From contig CAZYFY010000005.1 in the NCBI GenBank assembly GCA_964647275.1, positions 46,723 through 110,722 on the forward strand: DNA of 64,000 bases, written 5' to 3'. Under the pieces are notes generated by a model. The model had not been told where the DNA came from and searched no databases. It was given only the letters and a program-made list of their open reading frames with translations. This stretch comes from an uncultured Brevundimonas sp. (GTDB taxonomy: Bacteria > Pseudomonadota > Alphaproteobacteria > Caulobacterales > Caulobacteraceae). The position numbers were made by a program, and so were the translations under genes. Each line of letters opens with the position of its first letter. Within the stretch, counting starts at the first letter, position 1. Shown piece after piece: positions 3,072 through 59,268 of this stretch.

Positions 3072-5441
3072 ATGAAGTCACGATCCAGATCGTCGAGCAA
3101 GACTGCGCAGCGCGAGCAGACCGCCGAGGTCGCTGTTGCCCAGTTGGTCGAGGAATCGGAGACCACCGCCCTCGTCGCTGAAGAGCCTACTGATGAGCCG
3201 GTTGCCGTGACCGAAGACGTGCCCACGGTGGCCGCGCCCAATCTTCCGAGCCCCGTGTCCGTGCGGAATCAGGATGCCCGGGCCGCCTATCCGCTTGCCA
3301 TTATCGCTGCCCTGCTCTGGATCGGTGGCGTGGCGTCCTATGCGGCCTACCAGGTCGGCGGAGGCCAGCTTCAACTGGACCCGGCCGCAGGCGCGCTTTT
3401 GACACTGGTGGCGCTGGCACCGGCCGGGTTGGTTCTCGTGGTCGCCTACCTCATGCGCCAGGCCGCCGCCCTGGCCGCCGAGGTGCGCCGCGCGCGCTCC
3501 ATGGCCGATCGGCTAGGCTTGCCGACCGGTGTGGCGGCACAAGAGTCTGACCAGGTCCTACTAGGCCTGAGCGCCGGTATCGACAGATCAACCCAGGCCG
3601 CCGAGACGGCCCGGACGGAACTGGCCGCGCTGCGTGCCGCCATGGAAGAAGAGACGCGCCGGCTCAACGAAGCCGCCGACCTGGCCCAGCGCACGGCGCG
3701 ACGTCTGGCCGAGCAGCTCTCGCGTGAGCGAGAGGGCATGACCGAGCTGGGCTCTCGCCTGGAAGCCCAGACCCAGGGCGTCATCGAGACGGTCGAACGT
3801 CAGGCCCAGATGGTGGCGGATGCTTCAGATCTCGCTCAGACCCAATTGCGCGAGGCAGAGGCCACCCTGGCCGCCCGCGCTGCTGACATGGCCAATGCTG
3901 CCGGCGGGGCCCAGGATGCAGCGCGCGCCGCAGCCGACGACCTGTCACGCCAGACCATGCGTCTTGAGACGGCAGGCTCCGGGGTCGCCGATCAGATTCG
4001 CTCGGTTGAGGAAGGCCTGTCCGAACAACGCGCCGCCCTCGTCCAGGCTGCATTTGGCCTTCGGCGCGACCAGGAGGACTTTGCCGCTCAGGTCGAGTCC
4101 CAACGCGCGCAGCTGACAGAAACCTTGAACAGCACCCGTGCCACAAGCTCGGAAATGAGCGATAATTCAATGCGTAGTGTTACGGCTCTTCAGGATTTGC
4201 TTGAAGCGGCGACAGATCAGGTCAAGGCGCTCGCCGACATGAGCCAGAACGAGGCCCGCGCCTTCGACGCACGCACCCGCGAAGCCCTCGACCGTTTCGA
4301 GGATCTGGCGGCCCAGGCCCGCGAGAACGCCATTCAGGAGAGCGAGCGCACCCTCTCCGATCTGCAGACGGCCCTTGAAGGCGCGCGCGCGTCGACCGAA
4401 ACGGCCGTGACGGATGCCCAGGGCCGGCTGGATAGCCTGGGCGAAATGGCCTTCGAAGTGGGCCGCGCTGCGGATCAAGCGGCCGACACACGTCTGGCCG
4501 CCGCGCGTCGCATGGTGGAAGAAACAGCCAACCTTGGCGAAGAAGCCGCCAAACGGATCACCGACCGGCTGGAAGAAAACCTGCTGGAAGTTCGCGCCGC
4601 CCTGGCCCACGTCGAAGATGCCATCCGTCAGATCGACGAACGGGCTGCCCGCCTGCCGTCTGAAACCAAGTCACGGGTCGATGAGGTGAAATCCGCCGTC
4701 GAGGCAAGCCTTGAGACCCTGACCGAAGCCTCGCGCCGCGCCGCCGCAGAAACCGAAGCCGCGGACGCCGCCTTCCATGAGCGCGTGAAGCGCAACTACG
4801 ACATGCTGTCCGAAGCCGTCCAGCTGATGGGTGTCGTCTCGGGCGATGGCCCGGCACCGGTCCGTCGCCCGGCTACGAGCCAGGCCTCCCTCGACGATGC
4901 CCCCCTTCGCGGGCCCCTGCGTCTGACGCCGACCTCGCGTGACGAAGAGGTCCGTAAAACCTTCGAGCCGGCCATCGAGACGCCGCAACCAGCCACGGAC
5001 CGGATGTCCTGGAAAGAGCTCCTGGCGGGCACCGATGCGACGGGCTTTGACGATGACGACACCGGCACCATTCAGCATCCATCGGCCGACATTCTTTATG
5101 CCGACCTGACCGGCGGCATTCGGGAAATGGGAATCGACCCGGCGGCTCTGCTTCCGCGCACCCGCGTTGAAGAGGCGGCAAAGGCTCGCGATGCCGGTGA
5201 CACGGCGCGTGCCCGCGACATCGTTCGCCGCGTGGCACCGGCGGCTGTCCGACGGATTTCCCGTCGCGTCATGACCGATCGCCAGATGCGTCAGGATGTC
5301 GACCAGTTCGTCAGCAGCTATGCCGCTATCCTGGCCGATGCCCGCAGTCGCCCGGACGGCCAGGGACCGGGTCAGCTTCTGGCAACCGATGCCGGGCGGA
5401 CGTTCCTGTTGCTCGATGCTGCGGTTGGGGACCTGTCCTAG
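3072..5441 (+). CDS. Large membrane-anchored coiled-coil protein (TipN-like architecture; identity unproven)
   Basis: ATG at 3072 with AGGGG SD. Acidic N-terminus, two hydrophobic helices (LAIIAALLWIGGVASYAAY, LLTLVALAPAGLVLVVAYL), then about 450 aa rich in A/E/R/L/Q with heptad-like character, then a distinct C-terminal region. Confidence 0.6.
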   Translation: MKSRSRSSSKTAQREQTAEVAVAQLVEESETTALVAEEPTDEPVAVTEDVPTVAAPNLPSPVSVRNQDARAAYPLAIIAALLWIGGVASYAAYQVGGGQLQLDPAAGALLTLVALAPAGLVLVVAYLMRQAAALAAEVRRARSMADRLGLPTGVAAQESDQVLLGLSAGIDRSTQAAETARTELAALRAAMEEETRRLNEAADLAQRTARRLAEQLSREREGMTELGSRLEAQTQGVIETVERQAQMVADASDLAQTQLREAEATLAARAADMANAAGGAQDAARAAADDLSRQTMRLETAGSGVADQIRSVEEGLSEQRAALVQAAFGLRRDQEDFAAQVESQRAQLTETLNSTRATSSEMSDNSMRSVTALQDLLEAATDQVKALADMSQNEARAFDARTREALDRFEDLAAQARENAIQESERTLSDLQTALEGARASTETAVTDAQGRLDSLGEMAFEVGRAADQAADTRLAAARRMVEETANLGEEAAKRITDRLEENLLEVRAALAHVEDAIRQIDERAARLPSETKSRVDEVKSAVEASLETLTEASRRAAAETEAADAAFHERVKRNYDMLSEAVQLMGVVSGDGPAPVRRPATSQASLDDAPLRGPLRLTPTSRDEEVRKTFEPAIETPQPATDRMSWKELLAGTDATGFDDDDTGTIQHPSADILYADLTGGIREMGIDPAALLPRTRVEEAAKARDAGDTARARDIVRRVAPAAVRRISRRVMTDRQMRQDVDQFVSSYAAILADARSRPDGQGPGQLLATDAGRTFLLLDAAVGDLS

Positions 5442-45169: not shown

Positions 45170-45451
45170 TTCCACTGTCTACCAATCCTCGTCCACTTTG
45201 AGCGTGTAATCTCGCCCTTCTGATACCCGGTCGGCGCGATCAGACCCGCCCTTCATGCCCGCCCATGTCCGCCGGGTTAGGATATCTGACAGTCCCGGCT
45301 GATGTCTTGCCTAGGGCCTGCGGTCTTTGACATTCCGACCTCTCGCGGTCCGCACGCCAGCGGCTCGCAAAATATCCGCTGACCTGGCCTGAATGCCCGT
45401 ATCCCAGGACGTGGACGCTGCGGTTTTTGGTCCACTGTGGAAACTCACTCC
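45170..45451. repeat. Dispersed ~281-bp element, copy A
   Basis: Colinear with 57384..57664 with almost no indels. Conserved blocks TTCCACyGTCTACCAATCCTCGTmCACTTT, GTGTAATCTCGCCC, TTAGGAT, GGTCTTTG and GTCCACyGTGGAAACT. Confidence 0.75.
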
Positions 45452-48375: not shown

Positions 48376-48873
48376 ATGCGCGCCCTCACCCTCCTCGCCC
48401 TTCCTCTCCTCCTCGCCGCCTGTCAGGGCGAGAGCCGCACGACGGCCTCCCGCGAAACCATGGTCGATGGACAGACCGTGGCGGAGGTTCAGGTCACCGA
48501 TCCCTGGTGTCGACCGACCCCGAACGGCATGACCATGACGGCCTGCTACGTCACCCTGACCTCCTCGACCGGTGACCGGCTGACGTCGATCATTTCGCCG
48601 CGCGCGGCTCAGTCGATGGCCCATGCCGTCTCCACCGAAGGCGGCGTCATGTCGATGTCCGAGATGGCCGACGGCCTCGCCCTGCCCGCCGGTCAGACCG
48701 TTTCGCTGGCCCCGGGTGGCGACCACATCATGCTGACGGGTGTGACGGTGCCGCTGGCCGAAGGCGATCTGGTGCCCCTGGCCCTGACGTTTGAATCCGG
48801 CGCGCAGATCGCCCTGGAAGCGCCTGTCCTCGCCTCTGCGCCCGGCGATGAATCGACCCACACAGGACACTAA
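48376..48873 (+). CDS. Periplasmic copper chaperone PCu(A)C (DUF461)
   Basis: Lipoprotein-like signal LLLAACQG. AYVTL-type beta-sandwich with Met/His-rich SMAHAVSTEGGVMSMSEM and GGDHIML. Confidence 0.7.
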   Translation: MRALTLLALPLLLAACQGESRTTASRETMVDGQTVAEVQVTDPWCRPTPNGMTMTACYVTLTSSTGDRLTSIISPRAAQSMAHAVSTEGGVMSMSEMADGLALPAGQTVSLAPGGDHIMLTGVTVPLAEGDLVPLALTFESGAQIALEAPVLASAPGDESTHTGH

Positions 48874-48937: not shown

Positions 48938-49063
48938 CTCACTCATCAAGACCGGCTGAGGGATAGGCCCTTTGAAGCCGGGGCAACCTTCCAGAACTTC
49001 CCAGTTCTGGAGATGGTGCCAACTCCTGCGGCGGCTGTTTCAGTCGGCGAGAGATGAGTGAAG
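48938..49063 (+). promoter_or_regulatory. SAM-I (S-box) riboswitch aptamer, leader of the metX operon
   Basis: CTCACTCATCAAGA-CCGGCTGAGGGATAGGCCCTTTGAAGCCGGGGCAACC-[CCAGAACT..AGTTCTGG]-ATGGTGCCAACTCC...GAGAGATGAGTGA matches S-box conserved blocks. P1 is 48939-48947 pairing with 49054-49062. Hairpins follow before the GTG at 49145. Confidence 0.85.
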
Positions 49064-49144
49064 GGACAGCGCGTCAAGCGCGCTGAACGCTTCACGGGTC
49101 TTCTCATCCGCTCGGGTCTTCGATGAGCGGAGATCGAGCGGCCC

Positions 49145-50152
49145 GTGACCAACCCGATTACCCCCTGCACGCCAAAGAGCCGCGACATTACCGTTGCGGT
49201 TCCCGATGGCTTCACGCTCGCCTCGGGCCAGCCGTTCGCCGGCGAGGTCCGCGCCCGCCTCGTCGGCCCTGAACACGGCCCGCTGGTGGTCGTGGGCGGC
49301 GGCATCTCGGCGGGCCATGCAGCAGCCGACACGGCGGAGACTCCCGGCTGGTGGGGCTGGGCCATCGGTGACGGTGCCCCCATCGATACCAGCCGCGTCC
49401 GCCTCCTCGCGCTGGACTGGGCTCCCGAGACGACACGCGACGAGATCGTCACCATCACCACCGCCGATCAGGCCCGCCTGCTCGTCCTCGTCCTCGATCG
49501 CCTGAACGAGCCGAGCATCGACGCCTACATCGGGGCCTCCTACGGCGGCTGCGTCGGTCTGGCCTTCGCGGAAGCCTATCCCGAGCGCATCGAGCGCCTG
49601 ATCGTCATTTCCGCAGGCCATCGCGCCCATCCCGCCGCCACGGCCTGGCGCGGCGTCCAGCGCCGTCTTCTGGCCCTCGGTCTGGACGTCGGTCGCGAGG
49701 CCGACGCCGTCGCCCTGGCCCGCCAACTGGCCATGACGACCTATCGTTCGGGCGAAGAGTTCGATGCCCGTTTCGGCGACGGTCCCTCGCCCGCCGAGGC
49801 CGGCAGCCCCTATGGCGTCTGCGACTATCTGATCGCGCGCGGTGACGCCTATCGCGACCACACCACGGCCCGCCGGTGGATCAGTCTTTCGGACTCGCTG
49901 GATCGCCATCGGGTGAATGCAGAGCGCATCCAGGCCCGGCTCACCCTCGTTGGCTTCACCTCCGACCAGCTCGTGCCACTCGCCGACATCCGCGAGCTCG
50001 CGGGACGCGTGCCCAACCTCGACCGGCTGATCGAGGCCCCGTCGCTCTATGGCCATGACGCCTTCCTGACCGAGCGAGCCGTCGTCTCCGACATCCTCCG
50101 CTCCGCCCTCAGCTCCCTCCCCGCCCCCTGTTCGCAAGAGATCGCCGCATGA
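49145..50152 (+). CDS. metX: Homoserine O-acyltransferase, MetX family
   Basis: Alpha/beta hydrolase with GASYGG nucleophile elbow. GTG start. First gene after the SAM riboswitch. Confidence 0.75.
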   Translation: MTNPITPCTPKSRDITVAVPDGFTLASGQPFAGEVRARLVGPEHGPLVVVGGGISAGHAAADTAETPGWWGWAIGDGAPIDTSRVRLLALDWAPETTRDEIVTITTADQARLLVLVLDRLNEPSIDAYIGASYGGCVGLAFAEAYPERIERLIVISAGHRAHPAATAWRGVQRRLLALGLDVGREADAVALARQLAMTTYRSGEEFDARFGDGPSPAEAGSPYGVCDYLIARGDAYRDHTTARRWISLSDSLDRHRVNAERIQARLTLVGFTSDQLVPLADIRELAGRVPNLDRLIEAPSLYGHDAFLTERAVVSDILRSALSSLPAPCSQEIAA

Positions 50153-51327
50153 CCCGCAACAGCATCAATTCCTCCACCCAGGTCTGTCGCTCCGGCGTCA
50201 ACATCGACCCGACCCACGGCGCGGTGATTCCGCCGCTCTATCTGTCTTCGAACTTCAGCTTCGACGGCCTCGAAGGGAAGCGGAAGTACGACTATACCCG
50301 CTCCGGCAACCCAACCCGTGATCTCCTGGCCGACGCTCTCGCCGAGCTGGAAGGCGGCTGCGGCGCGGTCGTCACCTCCACCGGCATGGCCGCGGTCGAT
50401 CTGGCCCTGTCGGTGCTCGAGCCCGGCGATCTGCTGGTCGCCCCGCATGACTGCTACGGCGGCACCCATCGCCTGCTCACCGCCCGCGCCCGTCGCGGAC
50501 ATTTCTCGGTCACCTTTGTGGATCAGGGCGATGATGCCGCCGTCGAAGCCGCGCTCAAGCTTAAGCCGCGCCTTCTGCTGATCGAGACGCCGTCCAATCC
50601 GCTGCTGCGCGTCGTCGATGTGGCCGCCCTGTGTCGCCGCGCCCAGGCTGTGGGCGCGCTGGTGGCGGTGGACAACACCTTCCTGTCGCCGGCGCTCCAG
50701 ACCCCCATCGCCCTGGGCGCGGACATCGTCATCCATTCGACGACCAAGTACATCAACGGCCATTCGGATGTGGTCGGCGGAGCCGTGGTGGCGGCCGACC
50801 CGAAGGTGCTGGAACAACTGGCCTGGTGGGCCAACTGTCTGGGAACGACGGGTTCGCCGTTCGATTCCTGGCTGACCCTGCGCGGCGTCCGCACCCTGTT
50901 CGCCCGCATCGAGCGCCAGCAGGCAACCGCCGGCAAGATCGCTGAATGGCTGGAGGCCCATCCCCAGGTCGCCCGCGTCAACTATCCCGGCCTGAAATCC
51001 CACCCCAATCACGACCTCGCGGCCCGTCAACAGAAAGGCTTCGGTGCCATGCTTTCGGTCGAGCTGCATGGCGGCATCGATGCGGTGCGCGTCTTCGCCG
51101 AGAGCCTGGACATCTTCACGCTCGCGGAGTCCCTCGGCGGCGTCGAAAGTCTGATCGCCCATCCCGCCCTGATGACCCATGCCGCCATGGACCCCGACGC
51201 CCGCCGTGCCGCCGGTATCGGCGACGGTCTGGTCCGTCTGTCCATCGGGCTGGAACACGAAGACGACCTGCTCGCTGACCTCTCTCAGGCCCTCGCGGCC
51301 GTTCCCGCCAACGCCAAAGCTGCCTGA
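50149..51327 (+). CDS. Cys/Met-metabolism PLP enzyme (cystathionine gamma-synthase / O-acylhomoserine sulfhydrylase family)
   Basis: YTRSGNPT, DNTFLSP, HSTTKYINGHSD (PLP lysine). 4-nt overlap with metX. Confidence 0.85.
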   Translation: MTRNSINSSTQVCRSGVNIDPTHGAVIPPLYLSSNFSFDGLEGKRKYDYTRSGNPTRDLLADALAELEGGCGAVVTSTGMAAVDLALSVLEPGDLLVAPHDCYGGTHRLLTARARRGHFSVTFVDQGDDAAVEAALKLKPRLLLIETPSNPLLRVVDVAALCRRAQAVGALVAVDNTFLSPALQTPIALGADIVIHSTTKYINGHSDVVGGAVVAADPKVLEQLAWWANCLGTTGSPFDSWLTLRGVRTLFARIERQQATAGKIAEWLEAHPQVARVNYPGLKSHPNHDLAARQQKGFGAMLSVELHGGIDAVRVFAESLDIFTLAESLGGVESLIAHPALMTHAAMDPDARRAAGIGDGLVRLSIGLEHEDDLLADLSQALAAVPANAKAA

Positions 51328-51335
51328 GGCCCGCC

Positions 51336-52547
51336 ATGACCGCACAGTTCGCTCTGAATCCCCTCGCCGGTCGTCGGACGCCTGCTTCCGATCCCGTCGC
51401 CCTGATCCATGTGGCCCTCAACGACGAGCGCAGCATTCGCAACGCCGCCAGCGATCTCTATCGCCAGGCCAGACAAGGTCGCCGGGCCGTCGCCGTCGTT
51501 TCCGGGCACGTCGAAGCCCTGGCCAGTCAGTGCGACCTGATCGGTCTGGGGGCCGTGACGGCCGCTCCCCACGCCCCGGCCCTCGTCCATGAGCCGGTTG
51601 TCCTGGTCCAGGGCACGGGATCGGTCCGCACGCCGGAGGTCGCCCCCCCCCGTCGCCTGCGCATTGCGATCGCCGGATGCGGTGTCGTCGGTGGCGGCCT
51701 CTATTTCCGGCTGGTTGACGACCCTCGCTTTGACGTCGTCGGCGTTCTTGTCCGCACCGCCAACCGCCTTCGGTCGCCTCAGCCTGACCCCGCCCGGGTC
51801 TTCACCCAGGCGAGCGACCTGCTCGCCGCCGGGCCCGACATTGTCATCGATTGCCTGTCGGAGGCCAAGGCCGGCCTCGATCTCACCCGTGGGGCCCTCG
51901 AACGCGGGATTTCCGTCATCAGCGCCAACAAGCAGGCCATCGGGGATCACATCGAAGCCCTCACCGCCCTGGCTACGGCCCGCAACACAGCCTTTGCCTG
52001 CTCAGCTGCCGTCGGCGGGGGGGCCCCGGTCATAGAAACCCTCCTGCGAGCGAAGGCCCATGGTCCGGTGGCGCGCATCGAGGGCGTGCTCAACGGCACG
52101 GTCAACTTCCTGCTCAACCAGCTCTGTCAGGGCTGTGCCTTTGGGGAAGCCCTGGCGGATGCCCGCTTGCGCGGCTTTGCCGAGGAGGATCCCTCGTCTG
52201 ATCTCGAGGGCCATGATGCCGCTGCCAAGATCACGATTCTGTCCAGCCTGGCGTGGGGCAGCGCCCCGCCCATCCTGGCCACCGAAACCCTGAGCGCCCG
52301 GACCCAGCTCCCGCCAGGACCGGTTCGTCAGATCGCCCGCGCGGACGCCGGCACTGCCACCATCAGCCTTGAATCCGTGACAGACGACACCTTGTTCGCC
52401 GACCTCCCGGACGAGTGGAATGCGTTGCGTGTCATCTGTGAGGACGGCACCGTCTTCACCTGTAGCGGGCGCGGTGCCGGTCGCTGGCCAACCGCAGAAA
52501 GCGTCTGGGCCGATTTGCTCGATCTGCTGGATCAGCGCGCGGGCTAG
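51336..52547 (+). CDS. hom: Homoserine dehydrogenase, atypical (about 100-aa N-terminal extension, no C-terminal ACT domain)
   Basis: IAIAGCGVVGGG (NAD site), ANKQAI, GVLNGTVNFLL, DPSSDLEGHDAAAKI. The protein ends shortly after the catalytic domain. Confidence 0.8.
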   Translation: MTAQFALNPLAGRRTPASDPVALIHVALNDERSIRNAASDLYRQARQGRRAVAVVSGHVEALASQCDLIGLGAVTAAPHAPALVHEPVVLVQGTGSVRTPEVAPPRRLRIAIAGCGVVGGGLYFRLVDDPRFDVVGVLVRTANRLRSPQPDPARVFTQASDLLAAGPDIVIDCLSEAKAGLDLTRGALERGISVISANKQAIGDHIEALTALATARNTAFACSAAVGGGAPVIETLLRAKAHGPVARIEGVLNGTVNFLLNQLCQGCAFGEALADARLRGFAEEDPSSDLEGHDAAAKITILSSLAWGSAPPILATETLSARTQLPPGPVRQIARADAGTATISLESVTDDTLFADLPDEWNALRVICEDGTVFTCSGRGAGRWPTAESVWADLLDLLDQRAG

Positions 52548-53265: not shown

Positions 53266-54363
53266 ATGGCCCTGAAAGTCGCGATCGTCGGCCTGCCGAA
53301 TGTCGGCAAGTCCACCCTGTTCAACGCCCTCACCAAGACGGCGGCGGCCCAGGCCGCCAACTATCCGTTCTGCACCATCGAGCCGAACACCGGCGACGTC
53401 GCCGTGCCCGAGCCGCGCCTGGACGTGCTCGCCAAGATCGCCGGCTCGAAAGAGATCATCCCCTCGCGCATCACCTTCGTCGATGTCGCCGGTCTGGTGC
53501 GCGGTGCCTCCAAGGGCGAGGGCCTGGGCAATCAGTTCCTGGCCAATATCCGTGACTGTGACGCCATCGCCTTCGTCGCTCGCTGCTTCGTCGATGACGA
53601 CATCACCCACGTCGAGGACCGCATCGATCCGATCGGCGATCTGGAGATCATCGAGACCGAGCTGATGCTGGCCGACCTCGAAAGCCTCGAACGCCGCGTC
53701 GTCCAGACCGAGAAACGCGCCAAGGGCGGCGACAAGGAATCGCAAGGCCAGCTCAAGCTGATGAACCTCGCGCTGGACCAACTGCGCGAGGGCAAGCCGG
53801 CCCGCCTGGCCGAGATCTCAAAGGAAGACCGCAAGGGCTGGGACATGCTCCAGCTCCTGACCGCCCTGCCCGCCCTCTATGTCGCCAACGTCGATGAGGC
53901 TTCCGCCGCCGGCGGCAATGACCTGTCGGCCAAGGTCGCCGAACGCGCCCGCGCCGACAATGCCGAGACCGTCATCATCTCCGCCCAGATCGAGTCCGAG
54001 ATCGCCACGCTCGACGACGCCGAACAGGCCGAGTTCCTCGAAACCCTCGACCTGACCGAGCCGGGCCTGAACCGCCTGATCCGTTCGGCCTATGACCTCT
54101 TGGGCCTGCAGACCTATTTCACCGTCGGCCCGAAAGAGGCCCGCGCCTGGACCATCCACATCGGCGACACCGCCCCCCAGGCCGCAGGCGTCATCCACAC
54201 CGACTTCGAAAAAGGCTTCATCCGCGCCGAAACCGTCGCCTACGACGACTTCGTCGCCCTGGGCGGTGAATCCAAAGCCCGCGAGGCTGGCAAACTCCGC
54301 GCCGAAGGCAAGAGCTACGTCGTCAAGGACGGCGACGTGATGCACTTCCTGTTTAATAACTGA
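53266..54363 (+). CDS. ychF: Ribosome-binding ATPase YchF
   Basis: GLPNVGKSTLFNAL, DVAGLV.GASKGEGLGNQFL, and the C-terminal TGS-like domain. Confidence 0.95.
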   Translation: MALKVAIVGLPNVGKSTLFNALTKTAAAQAANYPFCTIEPNTGDVAVPEPRLDVLAKIAGSKEIIPSRITFVDVAGLVRGASKGEGLGNQFLANIRDCDAIAFVARCFVDDDITHVEDRIDPIGDLEIIETELMLADLESLERRVVQTEKRAKGGDKESQGQLKLMNLALDQLREGKPARLAEISKEDRKGWDMLQLLTALPALYVANVDEASAAGGNDLSAKVAERARADNAETVIISAQIESEIATLDDAEQAEFLETLDLTEPGLNRLIRSAYDLLGLQTYFTVGPKEARAWTIHIGDTAPQAAGVIHTDFEKGFIRAETVAYDDFVALGGESKAREAGKLRAEGKSYVVKDGDVMHFLFNN

Positions 54364-55085
54364 CGCCCCGGGACACGAACGCTTTTCACCGAAAAGCGTA
54401 CGTGTCCCGATCCAGTGCGCCCCAACGACGTGCGCGGCCGCCCCCTCGCCGGCTCCGTCAATCGCCGCCCAAACCTCGCCTCCAACGCCTTGACCCAGTC
54501 CCCTGCCCCCAGGGGCCGCCCGGTCGTGGCAGCACGCTGCAGCTTGCGCTGTGCGTCCGCCGAGACGTCACACGCAAACAGCTGATCCAACTCCGGCCCG
54601 AACCGCTCGACCACCGGCTCCGGCGTCAACAACGGATCGGCCTGCCCGCTCAGATGCGCCTTCACGCTCGACCACGGCCAGTCGACCGCCGTCTGCGTCA
54701 AACCGGCGCGCACTGAGTTCAGGCCGACATAGCGAACACAGGCCCGCAGATAGTCCTCATCCATCGGAAATGAGGCGAACCGCCCCTGCCACAGATACCC
54801 GCGCCACCTCTCGCGACAGTTGATATGGCGCGTGTAGCGCAGATGCGTCGTCCCCACTGCCTTCGCCAGCCCCTCGGTCGTCTTCGGCGTGGCGATCAGA
54901 TGCACATGGTTCGGCATCAGACAGTAGGCCCAGACCTCGACCCCGGCCTCAGCAAGTGCCTCCGCCGCGATCTGCAGATAGGTCAGATAATCGGCGTCAC
55001 GAAAGAACGTCTGCTGACGCCGATTGCCCCGCTGGGTGACATGATGCGGGCATCCCGGAACAACAACGCGCGCCATACGCGGCAT
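54315..55085 (-). CDS. REP-associated tyrosine transposase (RAYT; IS200/Y1 HUH family)
   Basis: HUH motif LMPNHVHLI and catalytic-Tyr region RYVGLNSVRAGL. Flanked by REP palindromes. The ORF tail reads through REP1 and overlaps the ychF 3' end by 49 nt. Confidence 0.85.
   Translation of the reverse strand: MPRMARVVVPGCPHHVTQRGNRRQQTFFRDADYLTYLQIAAEALAEAGVEVWAYCLMPNHVHLIATPKTTEGLAKAVGTTHLRYTRHINCRERWRGYLWQGRFASFPMDEDYLRACVRYVGLNSVRAGLTQTAVDWPWSSVKAHLSGQADPLLTPEPVVERFGPELDQLFACDVSADAQRKLQRAATTGRPLGAGDWVKALEARFGRRLTEPARGRPRTSLGRTGSGHVRFSVKSVRVPGRQLLNRKCITSPSLTT
54370..54408. repeat. REP palindrome 1 (GGGACACGAACGCTTTTC-ACC-GAAAAGCGTACGTGTCCC)
   Basis: 18-nt arms with one mismatch, 6 nt after the ychF stop and inside the 3' end of the RAYT ORF. 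Confidence 0.85.
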
Positions 55086-55150
55086 GACCAGACCTCCGTT
55101 CGCCCACCCTTGTTCACTCTTCGTTCCCAGATTTCAAGCGCCGCTGCACC

Positions 55151-55193
55151 GGGACATGCTCGCATTTCGCCCGCAAAATAGCATGCGTGTCCC
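55151..55193. repeat. REP palindrome 2 (GGGACATGCTCGCATTTC...GCATGCGTGTCCC)
   Basis: Imperfect palindrome 65 nt upstream of the RAYT start. Same GGGACA..GC..GC.TTTC family as REP1 and REP3. Confidence 0.8.
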
Positions 55194-56962
55194 GCGACCA
55201 GGAGGTACGCTGGCGGTTAAAGAGTGTGTGTCCCTGTTTCCTCGGCACCCTGCGCGGCGCAGCGGGCAGCGCCCTCACCCAGGGCGTGGCCGTCGCCACC
55301 GGTCTGCAGGATCAGTTCAACTGGGCCGACGTCGCCGTCCAGGCCCTCGGCGGTGGCGTCGGAGCCAGGGTCCAGGCCTGGCCCGGCGCGGACCGGTTCG
55401 GGGTCGTCTCCGGGATAGCCGGTGGCTTCGCCGGCGCCGGTGCCCGCTCCCTCGTCGAAGGCACGAGCTTCGGCGACAACCTGATGAGCGCCCTGCCGGG
55501 GATCATCGGCAATACGATTGGGAATGCCGTGGCGAGCGGGATCACGGCCAGAGGGGCGGCGAGACCGGGGCAGGGTTTGACCAAGGCCATGCGGTCCACA
55601 CCCGGCTACGCCACCGACGATGTGCTCAACTTCGACCTGCTGCACGCCAGGATGGGGGATGGGCTTTGGTTGGCCTCCGATCCGGGCGGCGGCTACCTGA
55701 CATTGGGAGCCGAAGGGGTCGCCTTCCAGGCCGAACTTGAAGCCATGCGTGGCGAAGGGGCTCGTAACATTGACCGTCGGATGCAGATTAACGGCCAGAC
55801 TGTTCGCGCCTCTGGGGTCAGCTTGCCCCAGTATCTTGGACAACGTGCCGACGGGCTGCACTACTATTCGGTGATGCCGGTCCATTCTCAGGTGCACGTT
55901 GATGGAGTGCTGCGCGCGACGGAGCTGACCTCGCGACCGGCGATTTTCACCAGCGCCGAACGACGCGCCTTTGAGGTTGAATTCTACCTCGACGGAGAAG
56001 GTACCGATCAGGCCGTCTACTGGGCCGTGCGGGATAGGCACAATAGCGACATCGCCAGTCAAGCGATCCGGGCCGAGACGGGGGTCTATAACCTGACCGG
56101 CGTAGACATGACCCTGACGATTTCGGATCCCTATTACGGCCTTTGGGGTGACGAAGGGTTTGCCTTCCGCACGGGCCTGGAAAACCACGTGCTGGGTAAT
56201 CTCATGGCGGGTCAGGCCATTGTGGCCGATCCGGTCGGGGCGGTGAAGGCGGTCGGCACACAGGTGCTCTATACCATTGATCCCGGCAACTGGGGCGAGA
56301 TCGTTCAGAACTCGTGGGATGGCGTAGTCGGCTACGTCGGCGGGCTAAGGCTGGCCGCTGAACACGGACGCCTCTCAGAAGCCCTGGCGGAAGACGCAGG
56401 CGGCGGTTCGCTGGCGGCGCTAGGCACGGTGGTTGCACCATTTTCTAGTTCCACCAGGCGAGCCGTTATCGACACCATAGATCTCGATCCAGCGGACGTG
56501 GCGTCGCATATCAACCGGATCAGAGATGGTGGTGGTCATGCATTCCAGCGGCACGGCGCTCATATTGACGACCCGGCAGTCTTGCGAAGAGCGATTACAG
56601 GTGAAGCTCCCGACGGTACCTTTAGTAGGGTAAGTGGAGTCGTCCACCGCGAATCGTCCACGATTTTCGACAGCGACGACCTGATGGTCAGGGCCGATCT
56701 GCTTTTGCGGCGTGATCGCCTGGGGCCGGAGGTAGCTCGGTTATCTCGAAACGGCCCGATTGCCGACGGCCACCGCCTATCGATTGAAGATGTCGATGCG
56801 GGCCGGATAGTTGGCCATGGCTTCAGACCCGCCGGACGATCTCTAGATGTTTACGGACCACCGGCTCCCATACTGCCAACCGCGATCACGGGGAGGTTCA
56901 TCTTTGACGCATCTTCAGGCCAGTGGTTAACTCACACCCTTTTCCCAACGGTTCCAAAATGA
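55187..56962 (+). CDS. Polymorphic-toxin remnant: 5'-truncated, Gly-zipper-like region, unknown middle domain, intact C-terminal toxin-like module (possibly RNase-type)
   Basis: The ORF opens at a GTG inside REP2, so the first ~20 aa are repeat-encoded and there is no secretion domain. Gly-rich GIAGGFAGAGA / GIIGNTIGNAVASG segments. C-terminal GGGHAFQRHGAHIDDPAVLRRA ... GRFIFDASSGQWLTHTLFP. Followed by an ATGA-coupled small gene. Confidence 0.6.
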   Translation: MSRDQEVRWRLKSVCPCFLGTLRGAAGSALTQGVAVATGLQDQFNWADVAVQALGGGVGARVQAWPGADRFGVVSGIAGGFAGAGARSLVEGTSFGDNLMSALPGIIGNTIGNAVASGITARGAARPGQGLTKAMRSTPGYATDDVLNFDLLHARMGDGLWLASDPGGGYLTLGAEGVAFQAELEAMRGEGARNIDRRMQINGQTVRASGVSLPQYLGQRADGLHYYSVMPVHSQVHVDGVLRATELTSRPAIFTSAERRAFEVEFYLDGEGTDQAVYWAVRDRHNSDIASQAIRAETGVYNLTGVDMTLTISDPYYGLWGDEGFAFRTGLENHVLGNLMAGQAIVADPVGAVKAVGTQVLYTIDPGNWGEIVQNSWDGVVGYVGGLRLAAEHGRLSEALAEDAGGGSLAALGTVVAPFSSSTRRAVIDTIDLDPADVASHINRIRDGGGHAFQRHGAHIDDPAVLRRAITGEAPDGTFSRVSGVVHRESSTIFDSDDLMVRADLLLRRDRLGPEVARLSRNGPIADGHRLSIEDVDAGRIVGHGFRPAGRSLDVYGPPAPILPTAITGRFIFDASSGQWLTHTLFPTVPK

Positions 56963-57261
56963 CAGCTACGCTAAACGAGGGTGAGCGCGCCGCGCTTGAT
57001 GTCGTTCTCATGCAGATAGATCCACGGTTTGAAGATAATCAAGAGGCTGCGTACCAAATAGCCTTCAATATTCTTTCTCTTCGTCCCGACATAAGATCTT
57101 GCTATAGATCAGCAATCAGAAAGACAATGTCCGATTTGAATTTCGATTTTAGCGATATTATCGAGAAGTATGAGCTAAATTACGGATCTGAGCACGAGAC
57201 GGCTCGCGAAACCGTACTCCGAATGCTGGTAGAGCCGTTCGAGAAGGTAGGCCTGTTATGA
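56959..57261 (+). CDS. Putative cognate immunity protein (100 aa, acidic, helical)
   Basis: ATG overlaps the toxin TGA (ATGA). About 46% G+C by hand count in a GC-rich genome. No family recognised. Alternative GTG start at 56923. Confidence 0.55.
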   Translation: MTATLNEGERAALDVVLMQIDPRFEDNQEAAYQIAFNILSLRPDIRSCYRSAIRKTMSDLNFDFSDIIEKYELNYGSEHETARETVLRMLVEPFEKVGLL

Positions 57262-57383
57262 CGCAATTGCCTGATTGGGACGCCCGTCCCCTGCACCCTT
57301 CGAAAACCCTCTCCTCGCCCTCACCGCCGCCAATATCGGCGATGCAAGCCGGTCAGGTCCGACCCTGGATGCGCCCACATCCA

Positions 57384-57664
57384 TTCCACCGTCTACCAAT
57401 CCTCGTACACTTTCGGGGTGTAATCTCGCCCGTCTCGATACGGGTTTGCGGCCTCGGGCCTGATCCTTATCCCCGTGGCCTTTCGGTCGATTAGGATGGA
57501 CAACAGGTCGGGCTGAGCCTTCGGCCGCCCTTATGGTCTTTGGCATCGTCGTTGTTTGCAGGCCGCGCCTCTAGCGGTTCGCCATGGCCCCGTTGTCGCG
57601 GTCCTATCCCCATATCCGCATCCGTAGACCTCGGACTTTTCCGTCCACCGTGGAAACTGACACC
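57384..57664. repeat. Dispersed ~281-bp element, copy B
   Basis: See copy A. Lies between the immunity-like gene and the YD/LysM fragment. Confidence 0.75.
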
Positions 57665-58099
57665 TTCGCCCGACCGAGACCCGGCACTATTACGACGTCA
57701 ATGGCCGTCTGACCTTTGCCGACATTCACGATGGGCGTCATCGCACGGTCAGCTTCGTGACCGATGGGGCCGGTCAGGTGCTGAGCCGCCAGGAGTTCTC
57801 CAGCGCGACGACCAATCCTAAATCCGTGGCCTATTATTTTGATGGGCTGAAGGTGGCGGATATCACCAATGATGGGGCCCAGATCACCGACTATGCGTCG
57901 GTGGTGGGGCGTCGGGTGCGCACGGGTCCGGGGACGGGGACCGGTCCGTTCCAGGGGGGCGGCTGGGGCGCGATCCAGGAGGCGGACTTCTCCCAGGCCT
58001 ATGATCCGATCCATCCCAATGCCCTGCCCGCCACGGCCCGCTCGGTGGTGGTTCAGGGCGGCGACACGCTGTCGTCGGTGGCGCGGGCCTTTGCAATGC
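57661..58099 (+). pseudogene. Fragment of a YD-repeat/LysM-type polymorphic toxin gene
   Basis: Frame opens at 57661: RHYYDVNGRLTF (YD repeat), YYFDGLKVADITNDG, ADFSQAYDPI, VVVQGGDTLSSVARAF (start of a LysM motif) cut by REP3. No start or N-terminus. Runs in frame into the radical-SAM gene. Confidence 0.55.
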
Positions 58100-58138
58100 G
58101 GGACACGCACGCATTTCGGGGAAAAGCGAGCATGTCCC
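58100..58138. repeat. REP palindrome 3, inverted relative to REP2
   Basis: GGGACACGCACGCATTTC-GGG-GAAAAGCGAGCATGTCCC. Its reverse complement begins GGGACATGCTCGC, identical to the first 13 nt of REP2. Confidence 0.8.
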
Positions 58139-58188
58139 GGGGGCCGTTTTGTTCTTGCTTTGTTCGCTCCGCCTACTATCTTTCCCCG

Positions 58189-59268
58189 ATGCCCACCAAG
58201 AGCGAGAACAAGGGACGCGGCGCGCGGTCGAATGCGACCAGCCGCTATATCGCCGACAAGCGCGAGGCCTTCGATGACGGCTGGGATGAGGCCGAGGATG
58301 CGCCCCCTCGCCTCGATACCGTCCTCATGCCCGAGCGGACGCGCAAGATCATCTCGACGAACGATAGCCCGGACATCGGCTTTGACCGCTCGATCAATCC
58401 CTACAAGGGCTGCGAGCACGGTTGCATCTATTGCTACGCCCGGCCCAACCATGCGTACCTGGGCCTCTCTCCCGGTCAGGATTTCGAGACGAAGATCTTC
58501 TTCAAGCCCGATGGCGCCCGTCTGCTTGAGGCCGAACTGTCCCGCCCGAAATACCGGCCCAAGCTGATCCACATCGGCGGCGACACCGACCCCTATCAGC
58601 CCGCCGAGCGCAAGCTGGAGATCACCCGCCAGATTCTTGAGGTCATGGACCGGTTCAACCACCCGGTCTCGATCATCACCAAGTCGAACCTGATCACCCG
58701 CGACATCGACGTGCTGGCCCGCCTGGCCGAGCGCAATCTGGCCGCCGCCTGCATCTCGATCACCACACTGGACCGCAGCCTCGCCCGCGACATGGAGCCG
58801 CGCGCCGCCACGCCGATGCGCCGCCTCGACGCCATCCGCCGTCTGTCCGACGCCGGGGTGCCGGTCATGGTCGGCTTTGCCCCCGTCATCCCCGGCCTGA
58901 ACGACCACGAGATGGAGGCGGTGCTCGAGGCCGCCGCCGAAGCCGGTGCCGATCGGGCCATGTTCGTCACTCTCAGGCTGCCTCTCGAGATCAAGGCCCT
59001 GTTCCGGGAATGGCTGGACGACGCGCGGCCCGATCGCGCCAAGCGCGTCATCTCCCTGATCCGTCAGGCGCGCGGCGGTCGTGACTATGATCCCGAATGG
59101 GGTTCGCGCATGAGGGGGACCGGACCCCTCGCCGATCTCCTGTCCCAGCGGCTCGCCAAGGCCTGCGCCCGCCTGAAGCTGAATGTCTCACGCCGCCAGC
59201 TCGACACCACCGCCTTCAAGGTTCCGCCGCGCCCCGGCGACCAGCTCGGCCTGTTCGACGCTGCCTGA
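58189..59268 (+). CDS. Radical SAM protein (PA0069/SplB-like family)
   Basis: CEHGCIYCY (CxxxCxxC). Starts MPTKSENKGRGARSN..., typical of this family. The track ORF from 57757 is a chimera with the toxin fragment. Confidence 0.8.
   Translation: MPTKSENKGRGARSNATSRYIADKREAFDDGWDEAEDAPPRLDTVLMPERTRKIISTNDSPDIGFDRSINPYKGCEHGCIYCYARPNHAYLGLSPGQDFETKIFFKPDGARLLEAELSRPKYRPKLIHIGGDTDPYQPAERKLEITRQILEVMDRFNHPVSIITKSNLITRDIDVLARLAERNLAAACISITTLDRSLARDMEPRAATPMRRLDAIRRLSDAGVPVMVGFAPVIPGLNDHEMEAVLEAAAEAGADRAMFVTLRLPLEIKALFREWLDDARPDRAKRVISLIRQARGGRDYDPEWGSRMRGTGPLADLLSQRLAKACARLKLNVSRRQLDTTAFKVPPRPGDQLGLFDAA

Follow-up and report, generated by a model that had tools for sequence, protein, structure and literature searches.

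A decayed orphan toxin-immunity array beside a low-copy RAYT/REP unit in an uncultured Brevundimonas genome

Background

Rhs/CdiA toxin genes are accompanied by downstream orphan modules, which consist of a conserved pretoxin region, a variable C-terminal (CT) toxin domain and a small, coupled immunity gene of low GC content. In IS200/IS605 transposons, hairpins lying on opposite DNA strands are ill suited to the single-strand excision mechanism. Systems of repetitive extragenic palindromic (REP) sequences and REP-associated tyrosine transposases (RAYTs), as well as REP doublets forming hairpins (REPINs), have been described (Bertels & Rainey 2011, PMC3116915; Bertels et al. 2017, PMC5581495), and low REP counts are on record for some RAYT groups (PMC5581495). 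Here we analyse a stretch of 64,000 nucleotides (the window) from an uncultured Brevundimonas sp. (contig CAZYFY010000005.1), in which a RAYT gene with flanking REPs lies beside 2.9 kb of toxin-immunity DNA that is closed on its far side by a further, inverted REP.

Two known things are neighbours here, namely an orphan toxin-immunity array in decay and a RAYT/REP unit of low copy number. The locus resembles described REP/RAYT systems in its single-copy Y1 HUH gene flanked by REPs with strand asymmetry, and in the short-spacer inverted doublets found in Caulobacter. However, classical Group 2 and Group 3 systems have tens to hundreds of REPs, while only four are present here, and the RAYT of the window is patchy in its genus and probably horizontally acquired. 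Like Rhs/CdiA orphan modules, the modules of the window are 5'-truncated with a fixed homology start (also seen at the metagenomic loci L132 and L130, see below), but the genome has no main gene and a RAYT unit stands at the head position. The toxin family is of the giant RHS, LysM and glycine-rich type (3000-4800 aa), unlike classical Rhs proteins with the PxxxxDPxGL core. With IS200/IS605 transposons the locus shares the Y1_Tnp fold of its RAYT and ends marked by hairpins instead of inverted terminal repeats, whereas no evidence of transposition, second copy or target signature was found, and the hairpins of the segment are inverted though RAYT's own flanks are direct.

Judged from alignments, the enclosed 2.9-kb DNA is the remnant tail of an array of orphan modules belonging to a giant RHS/YD-LysM polymorphic toxin, a toxin that acts between bacteria. 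On balance we favour the reading that this array decayed and that illegitimate events linked to REP/RAYT probably trimmed its ends; REP2 itself is the flank of the RAYT unit.

Results and discussion

REP hairpins and the RAYT unit

The REPs and the RAYT gene are as follows.

54369-54409, forward strand: REP1, a palindrome 6 nt past the ychF stop codon, with the loop nearest to that of the REP on contig C45
55150-55236, forward strand: REP2 unit, with the hairpin at 55150-55194, the tail CGACCAGGAG at 55195-55204 and the half-site GTGTGTGTCCCTG at 55224-55236
58099-58139, reverse strand: REP3, a solo REP inverted relative to REP1 and REP2, with the radical SAM gene start 49 nt downstream
Contig C45, 2893-2931, reverse strand: fourth REP, of the same palindrome family
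54315-55085, reverse strand: RAYT gene, with homology covering about 54437-55085

The assembly (71 contigs, 2.66 Mb, 65% GC) holds four REPs in total, three of them at this locus, so the flanking repeat is not abundant genome-wide. The exact 13-mer GGGACATGCTCGC has two sites in the assembly, at 55151-55163 (forward) and 58126-58138 (reverse) of the window, and both are palindrome arms, one of REP2 and one of REP3. In every REP copy the arms are asymmetric, with a left GGGACATG pairing with a right CGTGTCCC via a T.G wobble, and this asymmetry is common to all retrieved Caulobacter copies of the family. By this conserved criterion, REP1 and REP2 are oriented forward and REP3 and the C45 REP reverse, which makes REP2 and REP3 a genuinely inverted pair whose GGGACATG arms point outward. 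The initial annotation, made from the letters alone, had described just such a pair with outer GGGACATGCTCGC arms, and both the 13-mer sites and the arm asymmetry bear it out. REP2 and REP3 are also each other's closest relatives: when REP2 is compared with reverse-complemented REP3, 25 of 26 arm positions are identical and the difference is confined to the loops.

Folded as single-stranded DNA, REP1 reaches -21.5 kcal/mol (z -7.6 versus shuffled controls), and REP3 reaches -16.6 kcal/mol on its oriented strand (z -4.0 versus shuffled controls) and -14.9 on the other strand. In an Rfam scan of 54000-58600 the sole match was REP1, at chance level (E=0.66). A pattern scan found the REP family in none of the 120 other genomes of the genus that were compared, and a scan of species-representative genomes found it in Caulobacter and in Caulobacteraceae metagenome-assembled genomes (MAGs).

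The RAYT gene is present in a single copy. It matches Pfam Y1_Tnp (PF01797; E=1e-12, 48.6 bits versus a cut-off of 23), and the HUH-type motif NHVHLI is visible in its translation. With NCBIfam REP_Tyr_transpos (NF047646) it scores 68.5 bits, under the 80-bit cut-off, and is thus a divergent member of the family. Upstream, 65 nt separate REP2 from the RAYT start; downstream, REP1 follows about 20 nt beyond the end of RAYT homology. The same arrangement exists on the Caulobacter MAG contig L110, where a RAYT 72% identical to that of the window is flanked by two direct-orientation REPs, 86 nt upstream and 6 nt downstream, which, read along the RAYT coding strand, have the orientation of REP2 and REP1. 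Moreover, the REP2 hairpin is extended by a conserved tail, CGACCAGGAG-N19-GTGTGTGTCCCTG (55195-55236), and the L110 REP at 828-867 carries the matching tail CGACCAGGAG-N20-GTACGTGTCCCTG. By this layout, shared with L110, REP1-RAYT-REP2 is a canonical unit, and REP2 is RAYT's own flank and no free element.

Close RAYT homologs (58-71% identity) occur in 2 of the 120 genus genomes, both at other loci. One genus homolog adjoins lipB, and the homolog in genome G115 is part of an integrase island of low GC content, next to a tRNA-like sequence recognised by eye. Because it is patchy in the genus and occupies different loci in three species, the RAYT was probably acquired horizontally and not vertically; the nearest relatives of both REP and RAYT are in Caulobacter. 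The locus documents a RAYT of horizontally acquired appearance that has only four REPs.

Two observations concern the RAYT itself. Its ORF (open reading frame) lacks a stop codon at the usual place and extends across REP1 into the antisense of the ychF 3' end for 49 nt, so that it is 256 aa long, compared with about 207 aa for the Caulobacter homolog. Locus L072 (G049:C64, 9120-9975), from a different species of the genus, contains a RAYT 71% identical to that of the window and flanked by a different REP, GGAAAGTAGGGACACGCACCACTTTCC, which carries a GTAG tag and shares only the GGGACACGCAC core with the window REPs. It may be this core that is recognised by RAYT.

The enclosed toxin array

Between REP2 and REP3 the following features were identified.

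55238-56962, forward strand: headless toxin module, with the pretoxin region at about 55238-55600, a variable middle and the C-terminal toxin domain at about 56480-56959
56959-57261, forward strand: immunity-like gene, 100 aa, whose ATG overlaps the toxin stop codon (ATGA); assigned by position only
57385-57655, forward strand: 272-bp dispersed repeat, resembling a miniature inverted-repeat transposable element and unrelated to the REPs
57661-58098, forward strand: 5' stub of the next orphan module, with YD repeats and the first 14-16 LysM residues; homology at about 57679-58092

The nominal toxin ORF of 591 aa begins at a GTG within REP2 (55187), and a HMMER search with it gave 889 matches. 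Homology to full-length toxins begins at about 55238 (FLGTLRGAAGSALTQG, matching FVQGAVRGALGSALTQG of the relative P0007), directly after the REP2 tail. Residues 19-130 form a glycine-rich, DUF637-like pretoxin region, which in RHS and LysM containing relatives of 3000-4800 aa is located 400-500 aa before the C-terminus; they match residues of about 3740-4130 in such proteins of 4281 and 4512 aa, and the N-terminal bulk is missing. Residues 433-588 match the extreme C-termini of P0014, P0050, P0097 and P0134, with 26 invariant columns.

The giant relatives contain many RHS repeats and one LysM, and the order in the full-length proteins is RHS repeats, LysM, about 130-180 residues, glycine-rich repeats, variable region and toxin. 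By eye, a predicted hydrophobic (membrane-like) stretch lies between the LysM and the glycine-rich repeats in P0007 and P0015. From these giant-protein alignments the ancestral order follows as RHS/YD, LysM, hydrophobic stretch, glycine-rich repeats 1 and 2, variable region and toxin, and the homology of the window toxin begins in glycine-rich repeat 2.

At the other end, the homology of the stub (tblastn; P0006, P0007, P0008 and P0015) stops at about 58092, 14-16 residues into the LysM and about 6 nt short of REP3, in agreement with the earlier observation that the YD/LysM fragment ends in mid-LysM at this REP. The edges of both REPs thus coincide with truncation points. It had also been claimed that both junctions cut toxin sequence, which is correct in that both abut toxin DNA; on the left, however, the toxin start follows the tail at 55195-55236 and not the hairpin itself.

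We infer that the array was trimmed by REP/RAYT-linked events at these REP junctions; of the two options in the initial annotation, truncation made by REP/RAYT activity is the one that fits all observations. Candidate events would be recombination between REPs, or single-strand cleavage at a REP followed by joining to a distant pseudo-site. Such trimming would have removed the head (about 11 kb of the main gene) together with the rest of the last module, and would have left a REP at each scar. The pieces that survive would then be a headless module with its CT toxin, the coupled immunity gene, the 272-bp repeat and about 140 codons of the next module, with nothing left of the headless module ahead of its second glycine-rich pretoxin repeat. 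The remaining immunity gene may still guard against neighbours bearing this toxin.

A circular permutation of the ancestral gene was considered and ruled out, because in P0007 about 195 residues separate the point where the stub stops from the point where the toxin module begins. Just inside REP3, the LysM coding sequence GGCGGCGACACGCTG (GGDTL; 58068-58085) resembles the REP arm GGGACACGC; this likeness could be a junction microhomology, and could equally be chance.

The GC content at third codon positions (GC3) drops along the toxin ORF from 0.87 to 0.55. It is 0.55 in the toxin CT and 0.49 in the immunity-like gene, versus 0.86-0.87 in the flanking ychF and radical SAM genes, and the overall GC content of the immunity-like gene is 0.46 versus 0.65 for the genome. 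In composition, the toxin CT and the immunity gene look foreign.

No Pfam family was matched by the immunity-like gene, and no Pfam model by the toxin C-terminal domain. The invariants of the CT family (56480-56959) are G-H-A-x-x-R-H-G, R-A-x-T-G and W-x-T-x-T-x-x-P. An eight-member profile of the family had a sole match, over about 50 residues at E=0.078, in the CdiA-CT of Yersinia kristensenii (PDB 5E3E). The likeness concerns a motif in the N-terminal part of the toxin domain, where GHAlxRHGGsvTdxqLlxRaxTG aligns with GHLIDRHVGKTEAELLNRVSTG of chain 5E3E_B, and we regard this motif match as convincing. 5E3E is a bacterial RNase A-like toxin, and the CT is possibly an RNase A-like nuclease, which is meant as a lead only and not as family membership. 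With its motif GHAxxRHG, the CT defines a new family of toxin C-termini. A single-sequence AlphaFold2 model of the toxin was unusable (pLDDT, the predicted local distance difference test, was 31). A word-indexed search with the CT region gave no relatives usable for alignment, and an exact-protein look-up of the toxin ORF gave no match.

For annotation, the 591-aa ORF and the 503-aa ORF at 57757-59268 should be treated with caution, as both are artefacts of reading through a REP. In the latter, one continuous frame joins the stub, REP3 and the PA0069-family radical SAM gene, and the true start of this gene is probably the ATG at 58189.

The 272-bp repeat has about 10 other full or partial copies. 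Two copies of about 90% identity are on contig C2 (82672-82942 and 101527-101798), diverged or partial ones are on C8 (92287-92475), C59 (1411-1680), C29, C31, C39, C1, C3 and C4, and a further diverged or partial one is in the window at about 45170-45451. Its ends are conserved (left TCCACCGTCTACC..., right ...CGTCCACCGTGGA), and no Rfam family matches it. Two copies lie inside toxin arrays.

A second headless array, and REPs and toxins elsewhere

A further headless toxin array (C45:2-2931 and C59:3-1680) has the C45 REP at its head and is a classical Rhs orphan array with the PxxxxDPxGL core and a HELAH-type C-terminal domain. This array ends on C59 in a stub cut by the 272-bp repeat. Of 13 relatives, 12 have recG and sdhE-mfd next to each other in divergent orientation, with an empty spacer of 106-150 bp between them; here the array fills this spacer, the REP lying on the sdhE side and the 272-bp repeat on the recG side, and no second REP was found at the far end of the array. 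All four REPs of the genome are thus at two toxin arrays without a main gene, and the head REP has the same orientation relative to the array at both loci. No main toxin gene is left in the genome.

The second array contains a lipoprotein-like gene, two orphans with immunity genes and the stub, and the repeat copy that cuts the stub abuts recG. An intact Rhs main gene was not seen anywhere in the genome, and the locus on C13 also appears fragmentary.

The association of REPs with headless arrays could reflect REP-linked deletion, joint arrival of REP and array, or the tolerance of dead toxin DNA for insertions. A mechanistic link, in which REP cleavage beheads a toxin gene or carries headless cassettes, would explain both the four REPs at two headless arrays and the one clean insertion in the recG-sdhE spacer; we consider such a link highly unlikely. 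If true, it would be the first case of a REP/RAYT system shaping or moving protein-coding DNA, and would bear on the open question of RAYT function.

Arrays of the window's type were compared in two metagenomes. Locus L132 (JGI 3300034175) has a main RHS gene of >3281 aa, an immunity gene and three orphan modules. In L130 (JGI 3300034781), the orphan P0040, whose start falls within the glycine-rich region, is succeeded by an immunity gene and then by a YD stub, with flagellar genes immediately after the stub. The layout of L130, module, immunity gene and next module, is shared with the window, and all three orphans of L132, as well as orphan modules of L130, begin at the same YD residue as the window stub (TRHYYD). 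No hairpin matching GGGACA...TGTCCC, the sole pattern tested, was found in L130 or L132. Several database ORFs also begin near the same glycine-rich point.

These loci bear on the idea that truncation came first and that the REPs were inserted afterwards at the array borders, since dead toxin DNA is tolerant of insertions, which would make the coincidence of edges non-causal. Terminal stubs and glycine-rich-start orphans do exist in L130 and L132 without REPs, and the unrelated 272-bp repeat likewise landed in both arrays of this genome. But each REP has toxin DNA on one side and native flank on the other, no more than 6 nt from the end of homology, whereas random landing within a relic should leave relic DNA on both sides, and it is at the two toxin loci that all four REPs of the 2.66-Mb genome are found. 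We therefore judge a later landing to be distinctly improbable.

Conversely, REPs of the family occur without toxins: no toxin homologs were found at 15 Caulobacteraceae REP loci, and what lies between two inverted REPs in L110 is an ordinary gene of 250 aa. Since both REP-free arrays and toxin-free REP loci exist, the REP family and the toxin arrays occur independently. The initial annotation had named a REP pair without any association to the intervening DNA as evidence against its proposal, and at the family level this is what we find.

The second option of that annotation was that REP2 and REP3 are an oversized REPIN, or the bounds of a mobile unit, by which RAYT mobilised or captured a toxin-immunity cassette. 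The pair has the inverted orientation of a REPIN, with arms outward as in all Caulobacter doublets of the same REP family that were scored (5 of 5), besides the near-identity of its arms, and the second array, with its head REP, is a clean insertion into a conserved spacer. Nevertheless, the spacer of REP2 and REP3 is 2904 nt, versus 19-41 nt in the Caulobacter doublets, and no population of copies accompanies it. The content is gene fragments plus the unrelated 272-bp repeat and not an intact cassette, REP2 already belongs to the RAYT unit, and the C45/C59 array has one REP only.

Searches for a further copy also spoke against cargo. No second copy of 55100-58200 was found in the genome, the other matches being only REPs and the 272-bp repeat, and none of the REP2-REP3 segment in the 120 genus genomes, where the YD/LysM toxin family gave 1 weak match. 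Relatives of the toxin ORF with flanking DNA were absent from species-representative genomes, JGI metagenomes and plasmids, and the plasmid search matched at the ychF end only. The same REP-bounded segment, which it had been proposed to look for elsewhere, is thus single-copy in every collection searched. As to IS200/IS605-like cargo, the oriented strands of REP2 and REP3 lie on opposite DNA strands, and neither a second copy nor an empty site was recovered. On the preferred reading the REP pair is no cargo-carrying transposon, and mobilisation or capture of a cassette by an oversized REPIN is very improbable indeed.

Flanking genes and the search for an empty site

The genes on the two sides of the locus are as follows.

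53266-54363, forward strand: ychF, a housekeeping GTPase gene (Pfam YchF-GTPase_C and MMR_HSR1), the left neighbour
58189-59268, forward strand: PA0069-family radical SAM gene (NCBIfam NF033668, E=2e-152, residues 152-500 of the 503-aa ORF)

The ychF gene is 82-89% identical to those of genus relatives, in which the downstream genes differ, and the radical SAM gene also has different neighbours in relatives. The two were never seen adjacent in the genus (19 radical SAM loci and 15 ychF loci, with no neighbours shared). In the four nearest relatives, the blocks on either side of ychF are ones that in this genome are on contigs C13 and C9/C17, and the conserved downstream partner of the radical SAM gene is on C3 here. 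Neither a REP nor a toxin remnant is present at the C9 breakpoint. Since the neighbours of both genes differ throughout the genus, the locus is a lineage-specific rearrangement point. A comparison of the ychF/radical-SAM interval among related genomes, as suggested in the initial annotation, accordingly gave neither an empty nor an occupied site.

Several points weigh against trimming by REP/RAYT-linked events. Because no ancestral or empty ychF-radical SAM site was recoverable from the genus genomes compared, the deletion step is one that we infer. P0040 and P0055, two orphan ORFs without REPs, likewise have their start in this glycine-rich region, so the left truncation could predate the REP. 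The arms of REP2 and REP3 point outward as in genuine REPIN doublets, which a pure scar model does not predict. Finally, the association of REPs with headless arrays comprises only two loci, which is suggestive but not conclusive.

Another explanation is that the whole block from REP1 to REP3, RAYT together with a relic already truncated, came as one foreign piece such as an island fragment. REP1 (forward) and REP3 (reverse) indeed form a 44-nt inverted repeat, 86% complementary with a shared CCCC flank, and the gaps between the block and its neighbours are 6 nt on the side of the ychF stop and 49 nt on that of the radical SAM start. The rarity in the genus of both gene families (RAYT homologs in 2 and a weak toxin match in 1 of 120), the integrase island around the G115 RAYT and the Caulobacter affinity of REP and RAYT point in the same direction. 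On the other hand, ychF and the radical SAM gene are not ancestral neighbours and hence there was no simple insertion between them, the GC3 of the glycine-rich region (0.87) and of the stub (0.78) is host-like, and the block was found in no other genome searched. Arrival as one piece is unlikely in our view, and trimming of a decayed array at the REP junctions is still preferred.

A further difference lies on the other side of ychF. In the four nearest relatives (L050-L053), a homolog of the window gene at 48487-48828 is directly upstream of ychF, while here a riboswitch-metX-hom operon (48938-52547) and a 137-aa ORF separate the two. The interposition of metX-hom is a second lineage-specific change at ychF.

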